Source: a virus
Taxonomy: Duplodnaviria; Heunggongvirae; Uroviricota; Caudoviricetes
Direction: 5' to 3' (one strand)
Length of the DNA: 35,286 nt
Virus record (IMG/VR): IMGVR_UViG_2606217105_000003
Span: 1 to 35,286 of that record
Position numbers and translations under genes: made by a program. The notes under the pieces are model-generated. The model was not told the origin of the DNA. It ran no database searches and worked only from the letters and a program-made list of their open reading frames with translations. The first letter of the stretch is position 1; the number at the start of each line of letters is the position of its first letter. Shown here piece after piece: positions 1,276 through 35,286 of the stretch.

Positions 1276-1340
1276 TGGAGACGTTTCACTGGAAAGTGCG
1301 CCCGGATATGAATGTGGTATCAGAGCCGAATATTGAGAAG
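1275..1340 (+). pseudogene. Lambdoid minor tail protein M, N-terminal 22 codons, interrupted by the Mu-like insertion
   Basis: ATG overlaps the H stop (TAATG). Translation METFHWKVRPDMNVVSEPNIEK matches my recollection of the lambda M N-terminus (MKTFRWKVKPGMDVASVPSVRK). The frame ends shortly after in phage-end sequence. Confidence 0.65.
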
Positions 1341-1520
1341 GAGTTTATTTGATACCAGAGAGAAAACCGGGAGAACATTAGAATAAACGGGATTTGGCGG
1401 GATAAAACAACGAGTTAGGTTGTGTTGTTAGGCTGATTTCGTGTTACCGCTTTTTTGATACCATCAAAGGAAAATGCCAGTTTGGGTAAAACTTTTGATA
1501 CTACGTCAAAAAACCTTCAA
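1341..1520. repeat. Left end (attL-like) with three direct copies of TTTGATAC(C/T), putative transposase binding sites
   Basis: Copies at about 1348-1356, 1454-1462 and 1494-1502. The segment AAAACCGGGAGAACATT (1363-1379) resembles Mu left-end AAAAACCGGGAGGACATT. Confidence 0.6.
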
Positions 1521-1676
1521 ATACTGTTCGATGGTTTTTAAACTCCCTCGCTCGCAGTAAATCTTTTCTTCGTTTTAGTCATACATCTACCGCAATGAGT
1601 ATCAGCAGGCCGCTACAGCGTTGACATAGTTCTACACCAACATCGAAAACAGCCTAATGAAATAGGCAAACTACTA

Positions 1677-2288
1677 TCAGCGGGCCTGCTGCTTTTTAGT
1701 TGTCAGGCTCTTGGACTGTTCATGGCGTAAAGGATGAGTGGTATCACACTCTCTCGCCTCGTTATCTGCAAAAGCCTGCTCCTCGGGCGTTCTGGGCTGG
1801 ATTCCCAGGATTTTCTCTTTCACTACGCGATCCATTTGTAGTAAGCGAATATTATCTTCGTCAAGGAGAAAAAGTAGTGTTTCTATCCCTTTGCGAGCAA
1901 GCACCTGGAATAACGCTTCTTTCTCGCTATCAGACAAAAAGCGGATCAGCGATAGGATTTTATCATCTAAATCTGAATGAGGCGGCACTAAACCGTCTTG
2001 AGTTCTTTTTATGTTCATTTCTGGTTCTTTTCCCTCTCCGGTTTGAAGCCATTCAAGGCTGACCCCTTCACACTGCGCTATCTTTTCTAACAGAGTTTTT
2101 CTTGGTACTGGAGAGAGGTCTTTACGTTTGTAATAGTTCTGTAACGTATTGATGTTGATTCCCCACGCTTTCGCAGCTTCATTTCTCGAACGATAGCGAT
2201 CTACTAGTTTAAAAATTCTATTGATAACAGGTTCTTTTGAATCAGGAGCAAAAGAACCATTGTGTTCTTTTTGAGTCTCACGTTTCAT
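1677..2288 (-). CDS. Prophage repressor (c-like), HTH DNA-binding protein
   Basis: Leftmost gene, divergent from ner-A-B. ATG at 2288 gives MKRETQKEH...; the track ORF extends upstream only through a TTG. Probable HTH segment EAAKAWGININTLQNYYKR. Sequence unlike the Mu c repressor as I recall it. Confidence 0.6.
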   Translation of the reverse strand: MKRETQKEHNGSFAPDSKEPVINRIFKLVDRYRSRNEAAKAWGININTLQNYYKRKDLSPVPRKTLLEKIAQCEGVSLEWLQTGEGKEPEMNIKRTQDGLVPPHSDLDDKILSLIRFLSDSEKEALFQVLARKGIETLLFLLDEDNIRLLQMDRVVKEKILGIQPRTPEEQAFADNEARECDTTHPLRHEQSKSLTTKKQQAR

Positions 2289-2439
2289 TTGCTTATCCAA
2301 TTGAATTAAAAGACAAAAAGTGCAGACACATAAAAAACACAAAAGAACATTTGACAAGTTCTTTTTGTGTTCTTATTCTTTGTCCGAGTGGATAACCGCG
2401 CGGTTATCCGCACGGATAACTTTTTAGGATAGTGGAATC
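2289..2439. promoter_or_regulatory. Operator and early promoter region between repressor and ner
   Basis: Consensus -35 TTGACA (about 2351-2356) with TATTCT about 17 bp downstream. Perfect 20-bp palindrome GGATAACCGCGCGGTTATCC (about 2390-2409) at the predicted transcript start, plus a third GGATAAC copy at about 2414-2420. Position matches the Mu operator/enhancer region. Confidence 0.55.
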
Positions 2440-2688
2440 ATGACTCGAAAAGAAGATCCGCGTGCCGATTGGCACCCTGAAATCATTAAGGCAGAGATTC
2501 ACAAACGGGGACTGTCATTTCGCGCACTGTCCATTCAGGCGGGTTACAGCAAAGACTCCCTCAAGAGTGTTTTACGCACACCGTGCAAACCTTATCAGCA
2601 GATTGTTGCTGATGCGCTGGGGGTTGCACCGGAAACTATCTGGCCCAGCCGCTATCAGACAGAAAGCTACATTCAGAAGGTATCCTGA
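2440..2688 (+). CDS. ner: Ner-like DNA-binding regulator (Ner/Nlp family)
   Basis: 82 aa; motifs DWHPEIIKAEIHKRGLSFRALS and ETIWPSRYQ resemble Mu Ner and E. coli Nlp; immediately upstream of the transposase. Confidence 0.8.
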   Translation: MTRKEDPRADWHPEIIKAEIHKRGLSFRALSIQAGYSKDSLKSVLRTPCKPYQQIVADALGVAPETIWPSRYQTESYIQKVS

Positions 2689-2691
2689 TTT

Positions 2692-4773
2692 ATGTTTGTT
2701 CTCGCCAAAGAGCTGGTCGGTGTACCAGGATTACCAAAAACAATTAAAGGAATTCGGGAAGCATTGCGCCGTTATTGCGGCGAATCAGAAGGAATGATGC
2801 GTAAGCGTGCAGGGACAAAGGCTTTTGAGTTCCATGTCGACTGTTTGCCTGATGTGGCGCGTAAGGCGTTACAGGCTCGCCAGATTAAGGCGTTAATGAA
2901 TCAGCCAGCAACTGAGGCAAAAGAACCTGAATCTCCGCGTTTAAAAAAACGTGAAGACGGCAAAATTGCGGTTTACCGCAAATGTCCTGCGCTGTTTGAG
3001 CAGAAACTCGGAACGTTAACCGCTACGCAAAAAGAAACAGCGGATGCCCGGATTGCGATTGTCAGCGAAGTTTTGCGCGTTTGTGAACTACCAGGAATCA
3101 GCCAGGCCGCCGCTATCCGTGAGTTTGTGAAACAGGCTCAAAACGGTGAGTTACCGGCACACCTGGTGGAAACCGTTGCAACTGCGAACGCGAAAAAAGG
3201 TTCTTTGCGCTCCCTTAGTGAAATATCACTGAAACGCTGGATTGCTGATTTTAAAAAAGCAACCACTCCGGCTGAACGTCTGATCATGCTGGCACCAGGC
3301 AAACGTCAGCCCATAAAACCAGACCAGATTCGCTGGTTACCAGAGTTTCTTCGCTTTTACCGCCGTCCGAACGGGTGCGGAATACGAGAGGCTTATGATG
3401 ATTTTGCTGCGGAATGGTATGAAGTGCATCAGGACAATCCTGCGATGTGTGCAGCACTGCCGTCGTATGATCAGGTTTGCTATGCCATGAACAAACTCCC
3501 GGTTGTTGTGAAACAACGTGGGCGCGTTACAGGCAGCGAGTTCCGGCAGTATGAAGGCTTCGTGCGTCGGGACTGGTTATCTTTACCGGTAAATTATGCC
3601 TGGATTGGTGATGGTCACGGCATGAAGATGAAAGTGGCACATCCTGATCACGGCAATCCATTTTCCCCAGAAGTCACCTTTATCATGGACGGCAGTTGCC
3701 GCTTTATTGTGGGCTGGAGTCTGGCACTTTCTGAAAGTGTGGTTGCTGTTGCTGATGCGTTACGCCACGGAATAAAAAATCACGGCAAACCGTATATCTA
3801 TTATTCAGATAATGGCGGCGGTGAAACCAATAACACGTTCGATGCTGATATTACGGGTGTCTTACCGCGTCTTGGAATTGATCACCGTCTTGGTATACCG
3901 GAAAACCCGCAAGGGCGAGGGATTATAGAGCGTCTGAACCGTACTCTGGCTATGCGCATATCACGCCAGTTTGCCACGTATTATGGCACCGGTGCCGACC
4001 GTGGAACGGTTCGCCGGACGACAAAGGCTCTGATATCTGCAACAAATGCGGCAAACAAAGGACGGGAGCTGACTGAAAAACAACGGCAGGCTTTAAAAAA
4101 CCTGCCGTCATGGAATGAACTTATTGCTGCTATTGAAGCTGGTGTGGAATGGTACAACAACCGTCCGCATAGTTCGCTACCACTACGTGGAAACGGTGAA
4201 CATTACACCCCGGCGCAGTTCCGACGCTACAAACTGGAAAAAGAAGCGACGGAAATCGAATGGTTGTCCGACCTTGAACTGCGTGAAATGTTTATGCCCC
4301 AGATTGAACGTACAGTCAACCGCTGTGAAGTCAGGCTGTTTAATAATATTTATTATTCAACTGACCTGGAATATGAGCACGGTAATAAGGTGCTGGTGAA
4401 TTACGATATTCATGATGCAACAAAAGTAATTATCCGCCGCATGGACGGTTCCTATATCTGTGAGGCTGTCTGGGATGGCAATAAACAGCAGGCATTCCCG
4501 GTCACTGCGGAATACCATCAGCGCCAGCAGCGTATCAAAGGGATGCGTCAGCGCGGAGAGGAAAAAATCAGACTGGCCGAGGCAGAGAATACCCGAACAC
4601 TGCCAGCTCCTGTTACAGGCAACGGGTTGTTCAGCAACGTCTACAGACCAGTGGAGAAAGTCGTGCCAGTGCTGGCAGATGAACCGGACGATGAATATGA
4701 AAGCGACCGCGACGAATATCTGAATAATTCACTGGATATTCTGGAACAGAACAGACGTAAAAAAGCCATTTAA
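2692..4773 (+). CDS. A: Mu-type DDE transposase A
   Basis: 693 aa; N-terminal LPGLPKT motif as in the MuA enhancer-binding domain; C-terminus DDEYESDRDEYLNNSLDILEQNRRKKAI nearly identical to the MuA C-terminus as recalled. Confidence 0.9.
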   Translation: MFVLAKELVGVPGLPKTIKGIREALRRYCGESEGMMRKRAGTKAFEFHVDCLPDVARKALQARQIKALMNQPATEAKEPESPRLKKREDGKIAVYRKCPALFEQKLGTLTATQKETADARIAIVSEVLRVCELPGISQAAAIREFVKQAQNGELPAHLVETVATANAKKGSLRSLSEISLKRWIADFKKATTPAERLIMLAPGKRQPIKPDQIRWLPEFLRFYRRPNGCGIREAYDDFAAEWYEVHQDNPAMCAALPSYDQVCYAMNKLPVVVKQRGRVTGSEFRQYEGFVRRDWLSLPVNYAWIGDGHGMKMKVAHPDHGNPFSPEVTFIMDGSCRFIVGWSLALSESVVAVADALRHGIKNHGKPYIYYSDNGGGETNNTFDADITGVLPRLGIDHRLGIPENPQGRGIIERLNRTLAMRISRQFATYYGTGADRGTVRRTTKALISATNAANKGRELTEKQRQALKNLPSWNELIAAIEAGVEWYNNRPHSSLPLRGNGEHYTPAQFRRYKLEKEATEIEWLSDLELREMFMPQIERTVNRCEVRLFNNIYYSTDLEYEHGNKVLVNYDIHDATKVIIRRMDGSYICEAVWDGNKQQAFPVTAEYHQRQQRIKGMRQRGEEKIRLAEAENTRTLPAPVTGNGLFSNVYRPVEKVVPVLADEPDDEYESDRDEYLNNSLDILEQNRRKKAI

Positions 4774-4810
4774 TTAACGTTTAAACAAAATTTAATTACG
4801 AGGTTATCAG

Positions 4811-5749
4811 ATGAATATTTCCGATATTCGTGCAGGACTGCGCACGCTTGTAGAAAATGAAAAAACAACTTATGCACAAATCGCCCGCGAGTCTGGGGTG
4901 GCCGCAGGAACGTTAAGCGCATTCGTGAATGACAAGTACAACGGCGACAATGAACGTGTCGCGCAGTCTCTTGAACGCTGGCTGGAGAACTATCACCGCG
5001 CCGCAGAACTGCCAGAACCCCCGCGTTTTGTGGAAACCAGAACGGTCCGCCAAATCTGGACAAGTATGCGTTTTGCCAGCCTGACTGAAAGTATTTCTGT
5101 TATCTGTGGTAATCCAGGAGTGGGAAAAACTGAAGCGGCCCGCGAATTTCGTCGCACCAATAACAATGTCTGGATGATCACCATTACCCCATCCTGTGCC
5201 AGTGTTCTGGAATGCCTGACTGAACTGGCTTATGAACTGGGAATGAATGACGCACCGCGCCGTAAGGGGCCACTCTCCCGCGCTTTGAGACGCCGTCTTG
5301 AAGGTACGCAGGGGCTGGTCATTATCGACGAAGCTGATCATCTTGGCGCTGAGGTTCTGGAAGAACTCCGCCTGTTACAGGAGTCCGCCCGTATTGGTCT
5401 TGTTCTGATGGGGAATCACCGCGTTTATTCAAACATGACCGGTGGTAACAGAACGGTTGAATTTGCCCGCCTGTTTTCCCGTATTGCCAAACGGACGGCA
5501 ATCAATAAAACCAAAATTGACGATGTAAAAGCCATTGCGGATGCCTGGCAAATTACCGGCGAAAACGAGCGGGAATTATTACAACAGATTGCACAAAAAC
5601 CAGGTGCGCTTCGTATCCTGAATCACTCGCTGCGCCTTGCGGCCATGACAGCCTACGGTAAAGGCGATCGTGTTAATGAAAATTATCTGCGTCAGGCTTT
5701 CCGTGAATTAGACCTGGACGTTGATATTTCAACCCTGCTGCGCACGTAA
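4811..5749 (+). CDS. B: Transposition target DNA activator B (AAA+ ATPase)
   Basis: 312 aa; [17 protein letters not shown]... with Walker A GNPGVGKT and Walker [10 protein letters not shown]; near-identical to Mu B as recalled; directly downstream of A. Confidence 0.9.
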
Positions 5750-5762
5750 GGAGAGCGAAATC

Positions 5763-5990
5763 ATGATGTCACGGAATATCAAAATGGCGACGGAAGTAAA
5801 GACCTGGTTACAGGAGCGCGGCAGCCACGTCAACGAATCCTGGCTGGGCGTGGCCCGCCCGGTGCTTGAAATTACCTGCCCGCCACCGGAGCTGGTCAGA
5901 AACGCTGTCAGGATTATGGAGCATAAATCAGGGGTTGCCCGTTCCGTATGGACGGCCCGCCTTAATGGTTGCCAGATTATCTGGCGTTAA
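5763..5990 (+). CDS. Small early protein, Kil-like by position
   Basis: 75 aa from ATG with RBS AAGGAG upstream (track ORF begins at an upstream TTG). First gene after B as kil is in Mu. Assignment by synteny only. Confidence 0.4.
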
Positions 5991-6308: not shown

Positions 6309-6599
6309 ATGATGATAATCCCTCGCAAAAGATGGTCACGCGAAGACCGGGAATTTATCGAAGCCAACGTCGGGAAACTGACCGTTGAAGAAATGGCGAA
6401 AAAACTGAACGTTGCCCCAACCGCCCTACAGGCGCATGCCAGAAGGCACGGAATATCGTTGTGTGCATACCGGGTCAGTGAGCACGACAAATATTTGTGT
6501 CGTGAACTTTATAAAGAAGGGCTGGCTATTCATGTGATAGCCCAGAAGATGGAATTAAGCAATCGTGCTGTATCCAGCATTGTATACAGCGAATATTAA
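6309..6599 (+). CDS. Hypothetical early-region protein with probable HTH
   Basis: 96 aa from ATG after AAGGAGG; segment LTVEEMAKKLNVAPTALQAHARRHGISL looks like a helix-turn-helix. Confidence 0.45.
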   Translation: MMIIPRKRWSREDREFIEANVGKLTVEEMAKKLNVAPTALQAHARRHGISLCAYRVSEHDKYLCRELYKEGLAIHVIAQKMELSNRAVSSIVYSEY

Positions 6600-6617
6600 T
6601 TAACAGGAGCTTTATTT

Positions 6618-7142
6618 ATGGCTAGACCAGTAAAACGAATCAAGAACGCCGCAGCGGCTTATGTTCCACAGTCCCGCGATGCAGTGATGTGTGATATTCG
6701 CCGGATTGGTGACCTGCAACGCGAAGCGGCACGACTTGAAACGGAAATGAATGACGCTATCGCTGAAATTACTGAGAAATACGCCTCACAGATTACGCCG
6801 CTTAAAACCAGCATTGAAACCCTTTCAAAAGGCGTTCAGGGATGGTGTGAAGCGAACCGTGACGAACTGACGAACGGCGGTAAGGTGAAGACGGCAAATC
6901 TGGTAACCGGCGATGTGTCATGGCGTCAGCGCCCACCATCAGTAAATATTCGCGGTGTGGATGCGGTGATGGAAACACTGGAGCGTCTTGGCCTGCAACG
7001 CTTTATTCGCACGAAACAGGAAATCAACAAGGAAGCGATTTTACTGGAACCGAAAGCGGTCGCAGGTGTTGCCGGAATTACAGTTAAATCAGGCATTGAA
7101 GATTTTTCTATTATTCCGTTTGAACAGGAAGCCGGTATTTAA
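6618..7142 (+). CDS. gam: Gam, host-nuclease inhibitor (DNA end-binding, Ku-like)
   Basis: 174 aa; MARPVKRIKNAAAAYVPQSRDAV...GIEDFSIIPFEQEAGI closely matches Mu Gam as recalled. Confidence 0.85.
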   Translation: MARPVKRIKNAAAAYVPQSRDAVMCDIRRIGDLQREAARLETEMNDAIAEITEKYASQITPLKTSIETLSKGVQGWCEANRDELTNGGKVKTANLVTGDVSWRQRPPSVNIRGVDAVMETLERLGLQRFIRTKQEINKEAILLEPKAVAGVAGITVKSGIEDFSIIPFEQEAGI

Positions 7143-7240
7143 TATCACCATTAATATTTAATTAGTTCACTTTCTTTTAATTATGGCGCGATGCGTCAGG
7201 GGATTGCTCGCGCCTGAAACAGATTACTAAGGAATAAAAA

Positions 7241-7780
7241 ATGGTTGATGCAAAAGTTCTGAACGGTGTCAGCACATTATTACGGGCTTACGGGCGTCTG
7301 ACCTGTGGCGTTCTGGCTGAAAAAATGAATATGCCACCTTCCTCAATGGTGTATTTCCTGCGTGATGCGGTTGATGCCGGAGTTCTCACTGAAAGCAACG
7401 GATTTTATGACGTTCCGCGCCCTCGTCAGACGCCGCCAGTAAGACGAAACGCAACGGAGCAACCCGCTGTTGATGATGCTAAATGGTGCACGTTCCGTCG
7501 TTCGTTGCCCTGGCTGGAAAGCAACGCCATTCCGGCACTGGCAAAAGAATTTGCGACAGGCGTACTGACCTGCGAGTCGGTTCACATCGTTGCAGAAGTG
7601 GATGACGAGATGTGCAAACAGGGAATGCCTCGTTTTGCGATGGCGCATATCGATTTACGGCTGGGGCGTTTTATTTGCAGTTTAAGCGGCTGGAATATCA
7701 CCGACCATGTGGTGCGTTATCTCATTCTTGATTATTCACCGGTTCCGGCGACAACACAGGAAGTCAGCGAGCATGGTTAA
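7241..7780 (+). CDS. Hypothetical early-region protein
   Basis: 179 aa; ATG preceded by AAGGAATAAAAA; no recognised family. Confidence 0.5.
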   Translation: MVDAKVLNGVSTLLRAYGRLTCGVLAEKMNMPPSSMVYFLRDAVDAGVLTESNGFYDVPRPRQTPPVRRNATEQPAVDDAKWCTFRRSLPWLESNAIPALAKEFATGVLTCESVHIVAEVDDEMCKQGMPRFAMAHIDLRLGRFICSLSGWNITDHVVRYLILDYSPVPATTQEVSEHG

Positions 7781-7955: not shown

Positions 7956-8337
7956 CGCAGAGAAAAATGAAATTAAATCCACATCCGCCAGCACCAGAAA
8001 ACATCTTTATGATTTTTATGTTGCCTATAACCAGTGGTTAAAAAATGGTGCACCAGAAACAGAGGGTGAAATATTTGTTCAATATTCAGGATTATGTGCA
8101 AATGCTTGTCGTTATTTTGACGAAATCGGAGTGGATACCGAAGATATATTAGAACAATTACGTGCAGATTTTATCGCGAACGAGTTGGATGAATTATTAC
8201 CTTTCAATGAAAGTAGAGCGCACTATCATGAGGAATGCAGACTTGGCAGATGTCACCTGAATTCTGCTCGTGTGGCATGGGTCGAAAAACACTGCATTAA
8301 GGAGATGGGACATAATGAGCCGCACATCCCTGATTAA
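7948..8337 (+). CDS. Hypothetical protein, AT-rich (moron-like)
   Basis: 129 aa from ATG after GAGGT; visibly AT-rich relative to neighbours; no recognised family. Confidence 0.4.
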   Translation: MNNAEKNEIKSTSASTRKHLYDFYVAYNQWLKNGAPETEGEIFVQYSGLCANACRYFDEIGVDTEDILEQLRADFIANELDELLPFNESRAHYHEECRLGRCHLNSARVAWVEKHCIKEMGHNEPHIPD

Positions 8338-8866
8338 ATTAATTCATGTTGCCCGTCGGGAGTTGCAACTCGACGATGACACTTACCGAGCTTTTCTGGT
8401 GCAGTGCACGGGCAAAACCAGTTGCCGCGAGCTGTCCGTTGCACAACTGGAACAAGTGCTCGATGCCATGAAAAAGCGCGGTTTTAAGAAGCAGAAAAAA
8501 CATCCCCGCCGTCGCTTTAAGGGGCATGTCACACCACGCGAGAAGATTTACAAAATCTGGCAGCAGATGTTCCTTGATGGTTTCGTTTCCGATATCAGCG
8601 ACGCCGCGCTGGACAAATACGTTGAGCGCCTGACGGCCAGACGTAATGGCGGTCAGGGGGTTTCCACACTGGCCTGGTGTCACGGGGAATCGTTGCAGGT
8701 TGTGCTCGAAACGCTCAAACAGTGGCATATGCGCTGCATCCGTGAAGCCTTTGCCCGACATGGTGTGCCTTTACCTGTGAGCGAAACCGGTCGGGAGCTG
8801 CGCGGCTATGATGCACTGACCAGTGCGTATGCCCGCGCACGAAACAGCGGGAGAATTGCTGTATGA
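8315..8866 (+). CDS. gemA: GemA-like regulatory protein (Mu gene 16 family)
   Basis: 183 aa from ATG after GGAGATGGGACATA; sits immediately before mor as gemA does in Mu. Confidence 0.65.
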   Translation: MSRTSLIKLIHVARRELQLDDDTYRAFLVQCTGKTSCRELSVAQLEQVLDAMKKRGFKKQKKHPRRRFKGHVTPREKIYKIWQQMFLDGFVSDISDAALDKYVERLTARRNGGQGVSTLAWCHGESLQVVLETLKQWHMRCIREAFARHGVPLPVSETGRELRGYDALTSAYARARNSGRIAV

Positions 8867-9273
8867 AACAGATGAAAGAGCAGGATTTATTCGAAGACTT
8901 CCGGGACGACACCGTTCTGGAATATCTTCACGATTATCAGGAAAAATATGTTTATCCGGCGCTACTTTCAGAGCTGAATGCTCTGTTGCGACAGGAACTG
9001 ATAAGGCTTGGGGTTAACCCGGTCTATTCCCTTGAGTTGGTAGTGGCGATTTGTAATCATATCGGTGGGATTCAGGTATATGTTCCTAAAGGGAAAATAC
9101 TGGAAAATCTTATCAGAGACATGCGCATCTGGCGTGATTTTGATGGGAAAAACGTAGCGGAACTGGTGCAGCGTTACAAAGTGACATACAAAACGGTATA
9201 TCAAGCTATCAAAAGAATGCGAAGGCTGGAGCGTGGAAAATATCAAATGCAACTGTTTAAGGATGAGTCATGA
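8863..9273 (+). CDS. mor: Mor/C-family transcriptional activator
   Basis: 136 aa; acidic N-terminus, conserved-looking core LELVVAICNHIGGIQVYVPKG and C-terminal HTH-like YKTVYQAIKRMRR; position after gemA. Confidence 0.6.
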   Translation: MKQMKEQDLFEDFRDDTVLEYLHDYQEKYVYPALLSELNALLRQELIRLGVNPVYSLELVVAICNHIGGIQVYVPKGKILENLIRDMRIWRDFDGKNVAELVQRYKVTYKTVYQAIKRMRRLERGKYQMQLFKDES

Positions 9274-33828: not shown

Positions 33829-34014
33829 ATGGACTCTGTTCGCTGTAAAAACTGCAATAAATTACTGTTTAAAGGAGGTTTTAAGCATATAGAAATTAAA
33901 TGCCCTCGCTGTAAACGTTACATTGTCATATCGAATGCCAAAGAGCATCCCACGGAGCTGTATTGTGGGAAAAGAGAAGAAATCACGCGTTCTGACAAAA
34001 CCCTGCGTTATTGA
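33829..34014 (+). CDS. com: Com, zinc-finger translational activator of mom
   Basis: 61 aa from internal ATG ([14 protein letters not shown]...CPRCKR...) with C4 zinc finger; track ORF 33802..34014 extends upstream. Confidence 0.8.
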
Positions 34015-34669
34015 GTATGAAGGCCGGATTGTCGGCTATGGTTCAAAGGAGCTACGTGTTGAAACCATATCCTGCTGGCTGGCCCGCACAATCATTCAGA
34101 CAAAACACTATTCCCGCCGTTTTGTGAATAACTCCTACCTGCATCTTGGCGTATTCAGCGGACGTGATCTGGTTGGCGTTCTTCAGTGGGGATATGCCCT
34201 TAACCCCAACTCAGGGCGTCGGGTCGTGCCTGGAACGGATAACCGGGGCTATATGGAACTGAACCGCATGTGGCTACACGACGACATGCCCCGCAACTCT
34301 GAGTCACGGGCCATCAGCTACGCGCTGAAAACCATCAGGTTATTGTATCCGTCAGTGGAGTGGGTTCAGTCCTTTGCAGACGAACGCTGCGGACGCGCAG
34401 GCGTTGTATATCAGGCGTCGAATTTTGATTTTATTGGTAGCCATGAAAGCACGTTCTACGAGCTGGACGGCGAGTGGTATCACGAAATAGCGATGAACGC
34501 GATTAAGCGCGGAGGGCAACGAGGCGAGTATTTGCGGGCTAATAAGGAGCGGGCCGTGGTACACAAATTTAATCAGTATCGCTACATCAGGTTCCTGAAC
34601 AAGCGTGCAAAAAAGCGCCTAAACACCAAGCTATTCAGGATTCAGCCATACCCCAAAAACACATCTTGA
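33935..34669 (+). CDS. mom: Mom, DNA modification (adenine carbamoylmethylation) anti-restriction protein
   Basis: Frame overlaps com; sequence ...[25 protein letters not shown]... matches Mu Mom as recalled. True start uncertain: ATG at 33935 or GTG at about 33965 with GGAG upstream; track ORF begins at TTG 33923. Confidence 0.8.
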
Positions 34670-34768
34670 TTTGTATCAAATAATTTTCCGTAATGCCGTT
34701 TTGGGTGGTATCAAAAAAAATCCAAAACGGTATCAAATAATTTCGCGCGCTTTACGAAAGTGGTGACA
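34665..34768. repeat. Right end (attR-like) with three GGTATCAAA copies
   Basis: TTGTATCAAA (about 34671-34680), GGTATCAAA (about 34707-34715 and 34729-34737), inverse orientation to the left-end repeats; terminus ...GTGACA. Confidence 0.6.
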
Positions 34769-35032
34769 GTGAAGCTGGGCGATGGTTATGAACAGCGTCG
34801 TGCGGCGGGACTGAATAACCAGTTGTCGACTTACAGCGTGACGATACGTGTTCGTAAATGTGAACACCCATCTTTAAAAGCCTTTCTGGAACGGCACGGT
34901 GGCGTCCGCGCATTTCAGTGGACGCCACCTTATGACTGGAAACCGATTAGGGTGGTTTGTCGTAAATGGTCGGCAAGCGTGGGGGCGCTGTGGGTAGCCA
35001 TAACGGCAGATTTTGAACAGGTCGTGGCATAG
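34769..35032 (+). pseudogene. Lambdoid minor tail protein M, C-terminal part resuming after the insertion
   Basis: VKLGDGYEQRRAAGLNNQLSTYSV...ADFEQVVA aligns with lambda M from VRFGDGYSQRAPAGLNANLKTYSV... to its end; the two fragments together equal lambda M length (109 aa). Confidence 0.7.
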
Positions 35033-35040
35033 GAGGCTCT

Positions 35041-35286
35041 GATGCAGGATATTCCACAGGAAACACATCATGAGACGACACGCCTCACTCAGTCAGCCCA
35101 GGTGGTGCTCTGGGAAATCGATCTGACAGAGGTCGGTGGTGAACGTTATTTTTTCTGTAATGAGCAGAACGAAAAAGGTGAGCCGGTTACCTGGCAGGGG
35201 CGGCAGTATCAGGCATACCCCATTCAGGGGACAGGATTTGAACTGAACGGCAAGGGCAGTGCTGCCCGTCCGACACTGACGGTTTC
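35041..35286 (+). CDS. Lambdoid minor tail protein L, N-terminal part (3'-truncated by window edge)
   Basis: MQDIPQETHHETTRLTQSAQVVLWEIDLTEVGGERYFFCNEQNEKGEPVTWQGRQYQAYPIQGTGFELNGKG matches lambda L as recalled. Confidence 0.75.

Follow-up and report, generated by a model that had tools for sequence, protein, structure and literature searches.

Does this stretch of DNA (35,286 nucleotides, positions 1 to 35,286 of the tailed-phage record IMGVR_UViG_2606217105_000003, hereafter the window) carry the transposition machinery of phage Mu with new DNA-recognition parts, or a different machinery to which parts of Mu have been joined? Mu is the reference system for replicative transposition, and phage D108 illustrates the first possibility: there the DNA-recognition domains of the transposase have diverged from Mu together with ends and operators, while the rest of the enzyme is Mu's. 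The initial annotation took a similar view of positions 1341-4773, which it described as a mosaic module where DNA-recognition domains co-vary with end and operator sequences in an otherwise Mu-like machine. In our opinion the second answer is the better one. We are rather confident that window 1331-34754 (33,424 bp) is an intact transposable Mu-like prophage whose transposition and immunity module was recombined from at least two lineages. With about the same assurance we would derive B, kil, gam and com-mom from Mu proper, and the transposase A, the six candidate transposase sites and the TA termini from an enterobacterial lineage.

From the left, the gene order is the leftward repressor gene c, ner, A, B, kil and gam, with com-mom at the right end; the window has intact copies of c, ner, A and B. 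A DDE transposase with a Mu-transpos_C beta-barrel is encoded beside an AAA+ activator of the MuB type, the pairing by which a Mu-like phage is recognised. The genes on which the argument about the transposase depends are these:

2692-4773, forward strand: transposase A, 693 amino acids (Pfam HTH_Tnp_Mu_1, rve and Mu-transpos_C; matches to integrases and to 1TNS)
4687-4773, forward strand: recombination joint and Mu-type C-terminal tail, the last 28 codons of A and its stop (DNA identity to Mu)
4811-5749, forward strand: B, AAA+ target-DNA activator, 312 amino acids (Pfam Phage-MuB_C and AAA_22; 89.7% identity to Mu B)
6618-7142: gam (90.2% identity of its product to Mu Gam)

In a full-length BLASTP comparison A is 24% identical to MuA, far from the close whole-length relation that characterises Mu and D108 proper. 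By region the identity is 36% for residues 1-70, 15% for 71-180, 21% for 181-290, 26% for 291-430 (the catalytic core), 16% for 431-530, 28% for 531-600 (the beta-barrel region) and 24% for 601-663, and then it rises to 87% in the last 30 residues (664-693), where the protein ends ...DDEYESDRDEYLNNSLDILEQNRRKKAI. The divergence had been placed in the N-terminal DNA-binding region, after an LPGLPKT motif. The motif is indeed there, PGLPKT being common to A and MuA, but the divergence covers the whole protein except the tail. Conversely, the Mu-like character ascribed to the transposase C-terminus, to B and to Gam is borne out by identities of 87%, 89.7% and 90.2%.

A transposase of the Mu/D108 type that had diverged only in its N-terminal DNA-recognition domains, along with ends and operators, the rest being Mu's, would explain why the PGLPKT motif and an I-alpha-like domain are common with MuA and why the tail of A and B are of Mu type, and D108 differs from Mu in exactly such a manner. 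Nevertheless we give this explanation almost no credence, and the per-region identities to MuA refute it: identity is low in the DDE core (26%), in residues 431-530 (16%), in the beta-barrel (28%) and in residues 601-663 (24%), DNA identity to Mu starts only at 4687, the PDB sequence matches are integrase cores and not the MuA core, and the target duplication described below is 4 bp, not 5 bp. What survives of the idea of a Mu-like machine with swapped recognition domains is that ends, repressor and transposase do differ from those of Mu; what does not survive is the Mu-like remainder, since core, beta-barrel and III-alpha are only 16-28% identical. Judged by its sequence, A is a separate transposase lineage and not the Mu enzyme with new DNA-binding domains.

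The domain plan of A is nevertheless recognisable. Pfam finds HTH_Tnp_Mu_1 at residues 6-96 (E=1.5e-6), rve at 328-406 and Mu-transpos_C at 532-591, and we divide the protein into an I-alpha-like winged helix (about 2-70), a helical, putatively end-binding region (about 90-275), a DDE core with D307, D373 and E413, a beta-barrel (532-591), a basic helix (about 606-631) and the Mu-type tail. A search of PDB sequences with A (phmmer) returned retroviral integrase cores and the MuA I-alpha domain (1TNS), and no match to the MuA core. The catalytic residues were assigned by alignment to integrases, which places D373 and E413 40 residues apart, compared with 56 residues between D336 and E392 of MuA; a MAFFT pairing of MuA E392 with S424 of A was rejected in favour of E413 on the same alignment. 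An AlphaFold2 model of A, built with 24 homologues (close ones only), has a mean pLDDT of 55.7, with good values at 1-270 and values below 50 at 277-440; it was used for the N-terminal domains and for coarse fold matches only. The folds that it matches best, at this low model quality, are those of TnsB strand-transfer complexes, of the MuA core and of MuA I-alpha. The I-alpha-like domain itself superimposes on 1TNS with a Foldseek probability of 1.0, a TM-score of 0.69 and 36% identity. Hence the N-terminal enhancer-binding type of winged helix known from Mu and D108 is present in A.

Where does such a transposase come from? The closest relatives of A, 96-98% identical, are found in E. coli and Salmonella, followed by one of 88% identity in S. 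enterica subsp. diarizonae, by a group of 74-77% identity in Serratia, Klebsiella, Citrobacter, Pluralibacter and some E. coli, and by proteins of 697 amino acids with 58% identity in very many E. coli, Shigella and Salmonella, including O157:H7. Transposases of Pseudomonas D3112-type phages are about 31% identical over about 90% of the length, and thus closer to A than MuA is. We refer to the 58% type as Sp18-type, a name given here from an O157:H7 protein among the matches and not from the sequence of Sakai Sp18. In the Klebsiella phage Kp4866-3 the A protein is 71-92% identical to that of the window, depending on the region.

The module might be thought peculiar to the window; it is not. 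GenBank already has it, at 96-98% identity, in Yersinia phage vB_YpM_Tongde (MT591577; genus Muvirus) and in prophages, here called A21 and STEC388, of two E. coli strains with complete genomes. Nearly all proteins of the Tongde record are annotated as hypothetical, and we found no paper on phage Tongde, nor on Sp18 ends, in the searchable literature. The A module is thus already public, though unannotated, and a member of a widespread Enterobacterales lineage. We define this Tongde/Sp18-type lineage by an A protein at least about 58% identical, by TTTGATAC sites 18-19 nt from the termini and by a 4-bp duplication, the last being known for the 97-100% and 58% sub-lineages only; the window fits this definition.

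The joint between this lineage and Mu can be located. DNA identity to Mu begins at 4687, 87 nt before the A stop codon, and the tail DNA is 92% identical to Mu, encoding the peptide ...DEYLNNSLDILEQNRRKKAI. When Mu/D108, WS1933D (a prophage with the 58% type of A) and the window type are compared, they are unrelated upstream, converge about 87 nt before the A stop and are then near-identical into B. Outside the early region the DNA matches to Mu and D108 are patchy: 4687-5990 (A tail, B, kil), 6333-7749 (gam and neighbours), a weak one at 8312-9086, and 33839-34656 (com-mom). Kp4866-3 likewise has an A protein ending in ...EYLNNSLDILESNKRKNAI and, next downstream, a MuB homologue with 77% identity to B of the window; therefore the tail is an old feature conserved in both lineages, which has also been used as a recent crossover point. 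In MuA, subdomain III-beta mediates the interactions with MuB and ClpX (PMC3362531). A C-terminal peptide of this kind, as in Mu and D108, is present in A by sequence, and the tail probably contacts B and ClpX as that of MuA does. The late region (window 9000-33800) does not resemble Mu in its DNA; its identity is 96% to the STEC388 prophage and about 70% to Kp4866-3. In Tongde and A21 the same A module is accompanied by Mu late genes. The annotation of the STEC388 prophage lists no gin invertase between the tail-fibre genes and com-mom. The original description of a mosaic, with B, Gam and tail of Mu type while ends, repressor and transposase differ from Mu, is thus upheld, with the joint inside the transposase gene.

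The features of the ends and of the target duplication are these:

1327-1330, no strand: left copy of the target-site duplication (CGAA), within minor tail gene M of a lambdoid phage (joined flanks compared with intact sites)
1331-1520, forward strand: left end (attL), terminus 5'-TATTGAG, with three candidate transposase sites L1-L3 in the same orientation
1361-1410, forward strand: L1-L2 spacer segment (alignment to Mu left end, nt about 25-70)
34672-34754, reverse strand: right end (attR), sites R1-R3, terminus ...GCGCGCTTTA-3'
34755-34758, no strand: right copy of the target-site duplication, CGAA

The first DNA of the window belongs to a lambdoid prophage and covers the last part of a tape-measure gene and 22 codons from the start of the minor tail gene M. 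M is split after codon 22 by the Mu-like prophage, and its frame picks up again past 34754. It is a prophage within a prophage: positions 1-1330 and 34755-35286 are lambdoid tail DNA flanking the Mu-like element. These flanks match the lambdoid tail regions of about 1,780 complete E. coli genomes, the best of them without a mismatch save the 4-bp duplication. The left boundary is set by four copies of the same end beside unrelated DNA, in the window, in Tongde, in A21 (inserted in yciH) and in STEC388 (inserted in a gene of the DUF945 family), and with four different flanks the element must begin at 1331 and not at 1341, where the module had been made to start. The module does lie in the span 1341-4773 as had been proposed, but it also takes in B and the right end at 34672-34754, inside the window.

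Both ends were read in five elements, and all five have TA at both termini where Mu-like modules have 5'-TG...CA-3': the window, A21, STEC388 and Tongde read TATTGAG ... GCGCGCTTTA, and WS1933D reads TATAGAGAGG ... GCGCGCTTTA. For further elements we have the left end only. Five more 58%-type loci, each with another flank, start TATAGAGAGG, and the 75% type, read next to three different flanks, starts TATGGGG.... At the left terminus of the 76% Klebsiella/Serratia type stands 5'-TG, so that the second base varies within the lineage. In the record of Kp4866-3 the left terminus is TG and the right end is apparently TA; a single element may thus have different dinucleotides at its two termini.

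Five insertions at unrelated sites are each bordered by a 4-bp repeat, insertion of this kind being typical of Mu-like phages:

window, in lambdoid gene M: CGAA
A21, in yciH: AGTA
STEC388, in the DUF945 gene: TGCG
WS1933D, in glpT: AGCC
58% (Sp18-type) prophage, in ymjC: GAGG

The last of these combines the left flank of locus L013 with the right flank of loci L017 and L018, assuming descent from a single insertion. For the window and A21 the empty sites were checked by joining 150 nt of each flank and searching complete E. coli genomes with the result. The 300-nt query meets uninterrupted sites of 296 nt; that of the window does so in more than 1,700 genomes and that of A21 in 5,423, and the identity of the joined-flank match, 98.7%, is 296/300. 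As a control, both junctions of the Mu prophage in E. coli W read TG...CA with the 5-bp duplication GCCGC. Two other readings, in which the boundaries shift to make room for 5 bp or TA is counted with the duplicated bases, were considered and rejected, as they fit none of the junctions of the window, A21, STEC388 and WS1933D. In all five insertions the duplication is 4 bp, against 5 bp in Mu and D108. For the 75-76% sub-lineages the DNA covered was that within 10 kb of A, in contigs of Logan or ENA assemblies, and these sub-lineages have no members in the E. coli complete-genome set; the flanks in the Kp4866-3 record are too short to read a duplication.

One other pair of junctions is worth describing. 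Two E. coli strains, L017 (NZ_CP066032.1) and L018 (NZ_CP077479.1), have an identical right junction of a 58%-type prophage in ymjC. On the left one of them has ycjP and the other tyrR, and neither shows a duplication. This looks like prophage-adjacent deletion or inversion, as from replicative transposition.

Could the odd termini and the 4-bp repeat be decay or chance in an immobile remnant, rather than products of the transposase? In its favour, frameshifted late genes are annotated in some related prophages (A21, STEC388). We regard this as extremely unlikely for the window, given that its c, ner, A and B are intact, that identical termini occur with five different 4-bp duplications at unrelated sites, that the joined flanks differ from empty sites by exactly 4 bp, that TA left ends are found in three sub-lineages, and that Tongde is an isolated phage with host DNA at both its ends. 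Indeed near-identical modules stand at four independent sites, one of which is that isolated phage. The intact genes, the clean duplications, the near-identical copies at unrelated sites and the isolation of Tongde as a phage carrying host DNA at both ends together suggest that the module is active.

A survey from 2021, co-authored by a Mu specialist, provides the background for these findings. It states that Mu makes 5-bp and B3 6-bp duplications, that every Mu- or B3-like phage described up to then has kept TG-CA ends, and that TA-TA ends were new in Leptospira, with a 6-bp duplication, the question of their existence elsewhere being left unanswered there (PMC8705779). In the searchable literature the duplications given for transposable phages are all of 5 or 6 bp and TA-TA ends are confined to Leptospira; a 4-bp duplication in a Mu-like phage was not reported anywhere in it, which is weak evidence as most subscription journals fall outside that scope, and a paper on Pseudomonas integration sites contained no text on duplications. 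On balance we lean slightly towards the view that the A lineage is the first transposable-phage group with 4-bp duplications and the first with TA-TA ends outside Leptospira, working with a Mu-type B through a tail of about 30 residues.

If termini and duplication are not those of Mu, are the internal sites? The Mu att core RAARYRCGAAAR is absent from the ends of the window, although the same search recovers all sites at the ends of Mu itself. Instead there are six candidate sites of the type TTTGATAC(C/T), predicted from sequence, and here the earlier statement that the terminal repeats depart from the Mu att consensus proves right. TTTGATACY occurs 6 times in the window compared with 0.25 expected, with 5 of these in the two ends, and the sixth end site reads TTTGATACA. 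On the left, L1 (1348-1356) and L2 (1454-1462) both have the core TTTGATACC and L3 (1494-1502) has the core TTTGATACT; on the right, R3 is at 34672-34680 (TTTGATACA), R2 at 34707-34715 and R1 at 34729-34737.

The arrangement of these sites is that of Mu even though their sequence is not. Left sites lie at 19, about 124 and about 165 nt from the terminus in 5 of 6 related elements, the exception being Kp4866-3 (L2 at 89, L3 at 131), and right sites lie at 19, 41 and 76 nt in all six; every site has the same orientation relative to its own terminus. The core 12-mers of Mu are at 16, 121 and 161 nt on the left, and at 16 and 38 nt with an inverted copy at 56 on the right. Thus L1-L2 spacing is 105-106 bp in the window family (106 in the window itself) vs 105 bp in Mu, L2-L3 spacing is 40-42 bp (40 in the window) vs 40 bp, and R1-R2 spacing is 22 bp in both. 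Both ends carry several subterminal repeats placed asymmetrically, as is expected of a Mu-like module, the binding being predicted. In STEC388 the L2 and L3 motifs are kept in place amid otherwise diverged DNA.

The spacer between L1 and L2 (1361-1410; AAACCGGGAGAACATTAGAATAAACGGGATTTGGCGGGAT) also resembles the Mu left end, at nt about 25-70 (AAACCGGGAG.ACATT.GA.TA..CGGGAT), and it is conserved in the window, A21 and STEC388 and in the 58% Sp18-type and Klebsiella-type left ends. It is kept though packaging genes differ between the phages that carry it. The segment may be a packaging (pac) site or a host-factor site; its counterpart in Mu is where the pac site was mapped.

The remaining question concerns the regulation of the module, for which the following features matter:

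1677-2288, reverse strand: immunity repressor c, 203 amino acids (phrog_3037, E=1e-42; weak Pfam Phage_CI_repr)
2230-2369, no strand: candidate c operators, GTTCTTTT/AAAAGAAC half-sites and inverted repeats
2351-2379, forward strand: early promoter candidate Pe, TTGACA, 17 nt, TATTCT (consensus match only)
2390-2420, no strand: GGATAAC array, putative Ner operator, 12-bp period, between Pe and ner
2440-2688, forward strand: Ner-like early regulator, 82 amino acids (Pfam HTH_35, E=8.5e-22; 45% identity to Mu Ner)

By family the repressor is one of the phage repressors that have a CI-type helix-turn-helix (phrog_3037, E=1e-42; weakly also Phage_CI_repr). It has no similarity to Mu c, in agreement with the initial annotation, and none to residues 1-119 of A. 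In Mu and D108 the DNA-binding domain of the repressor is homologous to I-alpha, and c lacks this relation; the 'Mu-specific' enhancer-binding domain thus appears to occur in the A lineage without a homologous repressor. Ner, first in the early operon, is by contrast a proper member of the Ner family. The repressor is itself a hybrid: its C-terminal 60 or so amino acids match A21 and Tongde, its N-terminal DNA-binding part is closest to STEC388 (about 60-65%), and the upstream operator DNA of the window is common with STEC388. The repressor of STEC388 (L003, 3239-3844) matches phrog_7148 with amino acids 91-193, and A matches the N-terminal part of the same family with amino acids 3-66. This suggests that phrog_7148 is the Mu c family and that the STEC388 repressor joins a CI-type N-terminus to a Mu c-like C-terminus.

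The only good sigma-70-like match in 1331-2700 is Pe (TTGACA-17-TATTCT, 10 of 12 positions), which points at ner. Over its -35 lies the 12/13-nt palindrome ACACAAAAGAAC-N9-GTTCTTTTTGTGT (2337-2369), and the half-site GTTCTTTT has 9 matches in the window (1.25 expected for its whole length), 7 of which fall within 2002-2365. A21, with its different repressor DNA-binding region, has a different palindrome at the same place (ACCAAAAATACC-N7-GGTGTTTTTGGT). We read the AAAAGAAC-type palindromes over Pe as candidate operators of c.

The GGATAAC repeats form an array of GGATAACC, GGTTATCC and GGATAAC at 2390, 2403 and 2414, with a 12-bp period, downstream of the -10 of Pe and upstream of the ner start codon. 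They had been taken for a palindromic operator of the repressor, and by extension one may think of an enhancer bound by the I-alpha domain of A. The array does stand in the c-ner control region beside Pe, an I-alpha-like domain is present in A, and the Mu enhancer overlaps operator DNA. In spite of this we find either role unlikely. Array and ner in A21 and Tongde are the same as in the window, although the DNA-binding part of the repressor, the DNA upstream and the palindrome there differ. In STEC388 the array is altered (GGATATCC/GGATATCC/GGGTAAT), and there it is ner that has diverged (55% identical), while A is 99-100% identical (99% in residues 1-70) and the repressor N-terminus, at about 60-65%, is the closest of those compared. 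In two 58%-type prophages with different repressors, moreover, the common sequence starts just left of the equivalent TTATCC array. Because natural recombinants track it with ner, and not with c or A, the array is most probably the Ner operator. GGATAAC as such occurs 12 times in the window against 2.7 expected, and 9 of these copies are outside the control region, scattered through the late genes. A comparison of 9-mers shared among three elements with identical A returned end sites, spacer and the AAAAGAAC motif only, and no candidate for an enhancer.

What would have spoken for a simple variant of Mu or D108, namely a repressor and ends of their type with conserved att consensus sites, did not occur. 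That the module recognises ends of its own type and is heteroimmune to Mu may reasonably be inferred.

Certain points weigh against the reading given so far. The catalytic core is poorly modelled (pLDDT below 50), and E413 therefore rests on the integrase sequence alignment, while MAFFT misaligned this region with respect to MuA E392. As c is not homologous to the I-alpha-like domain of A, a Mu-style enhancer overlapping the operator cannot be assumed here. Three of the seven GTTCTTTT sites are in the coding sequence of c (in K-E and G-S-F codons) and may reflect codons only. The assignment of the Ner operator comes from few natural recombinants, in which adjacency alone could explain the linkage. 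The duplication length is set by five insertions in two sub-lineages, two of them compared with empty sites. Finally, the A lineage is known from its sequences.

With these points in mind, we can outline how a module recombined from Mu and the Enterobacterales lineage might work. Its anatomy, homologies, recombination joints, site geometry, termini and duplication length are observed; the DNA-protein contacts of A, c and Ner and the catalysis we infer. A would bind L1-L3 and R1-R3 via the helical N-terminal domains downstream of I-alpha, and the Mu-like spacing of the sites would lead to a Mu-like asymmetric transpososome. The DDE core (D307, D373, E413) would nick after the terminal A of TA and then insert the ends, staggered by 4 nt, into target DNA to which B is bound, which would give the 4-bp duplications. 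Since B is about 90% identical between phages that duplicate 5 bp and 4 bp, the stagger is most simply explained as a property of A. The Mu-type tail would recruit B and later ClpX, which would recognise ...RRKKAI to remodel the complex. The CI-type repressor would act at the AAAAGAAC palindromes over Pe and the Ner homologue at the GGATAAC array just downstream, each regulator with its sites forming a separately exchangeable cassette.

The novelty seems to lie in the joint occurrence of four things: the Mu-like geometry of the sites, the TA-TA termini, the duplication of 4 bp and the plug-in Mu tail. This is a natural domain swap: an enzyme 24% identical to MuA, joined about 29 codons from its end to a Mu tail, supports the C-terminal peptide as a sufficient portable interface for MuB and probably for ClpX. 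The spacing of Mu with a different site sequence, TA and a 4-bp stagger suggests that transpososome architecture is separable from sequence recognition and from active-site spacing on the target. If the A lineage does make 4-bp duplications and TA-TA ends together with a Mu-type B, it is the transposase alone that sets the length of the duplication and the preferred terminal dinucleotide, and E. coli would offer natural, Mu-compatible material for asking how. It also follows that tools for finding prophage boundaries which expect TG..CA and 5 bp will misplace the ends of elements of this type. And the question raised in the survey (PMC8705779) receives an answer, as TA-TA prophages do exist outside Leptospira: E. 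coli carries them, and a phage that was isolated on Y. pestis has such ends too.

How then does the module compare with the systems that are already known? One of them is the TnsB-TnsC pair of Tn7 and the CRISPR-associated transposons (CAST). It provides the best fold matches of the A model, and like A and B it consists of a DDE transposase with multiple subterminal sites and an AAA+ target protein contacted through the transposase C-terminal tail. Unlike the window element, it does not belong to a phage and makes a 5-bp duplication, and there is no sequence-level relation beyond the fold, the model itself being of low quality. Phages of the D3112/B3 type share with the window an A protein of about 31% identity and a repressor that is not Mu c-like, whereas B3 differs in its 6-bp duplications and TG-CA ends (PMC8705779). 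The TA-TA prophages of Leptospira have, like the window, TA and not TG-CA at both ends; unlike it, they make a 6-bp duplication, live in unrelated hosts with unrelated genomes, and use a B3/Tn552-like transposase without the enhancer-binding domain (PMC8705779).

Among the close relatives, Sp18-type elements have TTTGATAC sites at the same positions, the left 5'-TA terminus (TATAGAGAGG...), the 4-bp duplication and the Mu-type tail joint with B, kil and gam, and differ in their c and ner alleles and, for most of them, in having Mu-type late genes. Tongde, A21 and STEC388 have the left end, A (97-100% amino acid identity) and the right end of the window. Tongde and A21 also share its ner and the C-terminal third of c, but have Mu late genes and another DNA-binding region and operator of c. 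With STEC388 the window has in common the late genes (96%) and the c operators upstream, and no repressor compared comes nearer to that of the window in its N-terminus (about 60-65%); ner, the array and the C-terminus of c are different in STEC388.

Mu and D108 themselves agree with the window in the order c (leftward), ner, A, B, kil ... gam with com-mom at the right end, in B and Gam (about 90% identical), in the last 30 amino acids of A (87%), in the I-alpha-like N-terminal domain, DDE core and Mu-transpos_C barrel of A, and in the six-site geometry (L1-L2, L2-L3, R1-R2) with a similar L1-L2 spacer. The differences are these. The A protein of the window is only 24% identical overall; its sites are TTTGATAC(C/T) and not the att consensus, with R3 a direct copy at +35 where that of Mu is inverted; its termini are TA..TA and not TG..CA, its duplication is 4 bp and not 5 bp, its repressor has a CI-type helix-turn-helix without homology to the N-terminus of A, and its late genes are not those of Mu.

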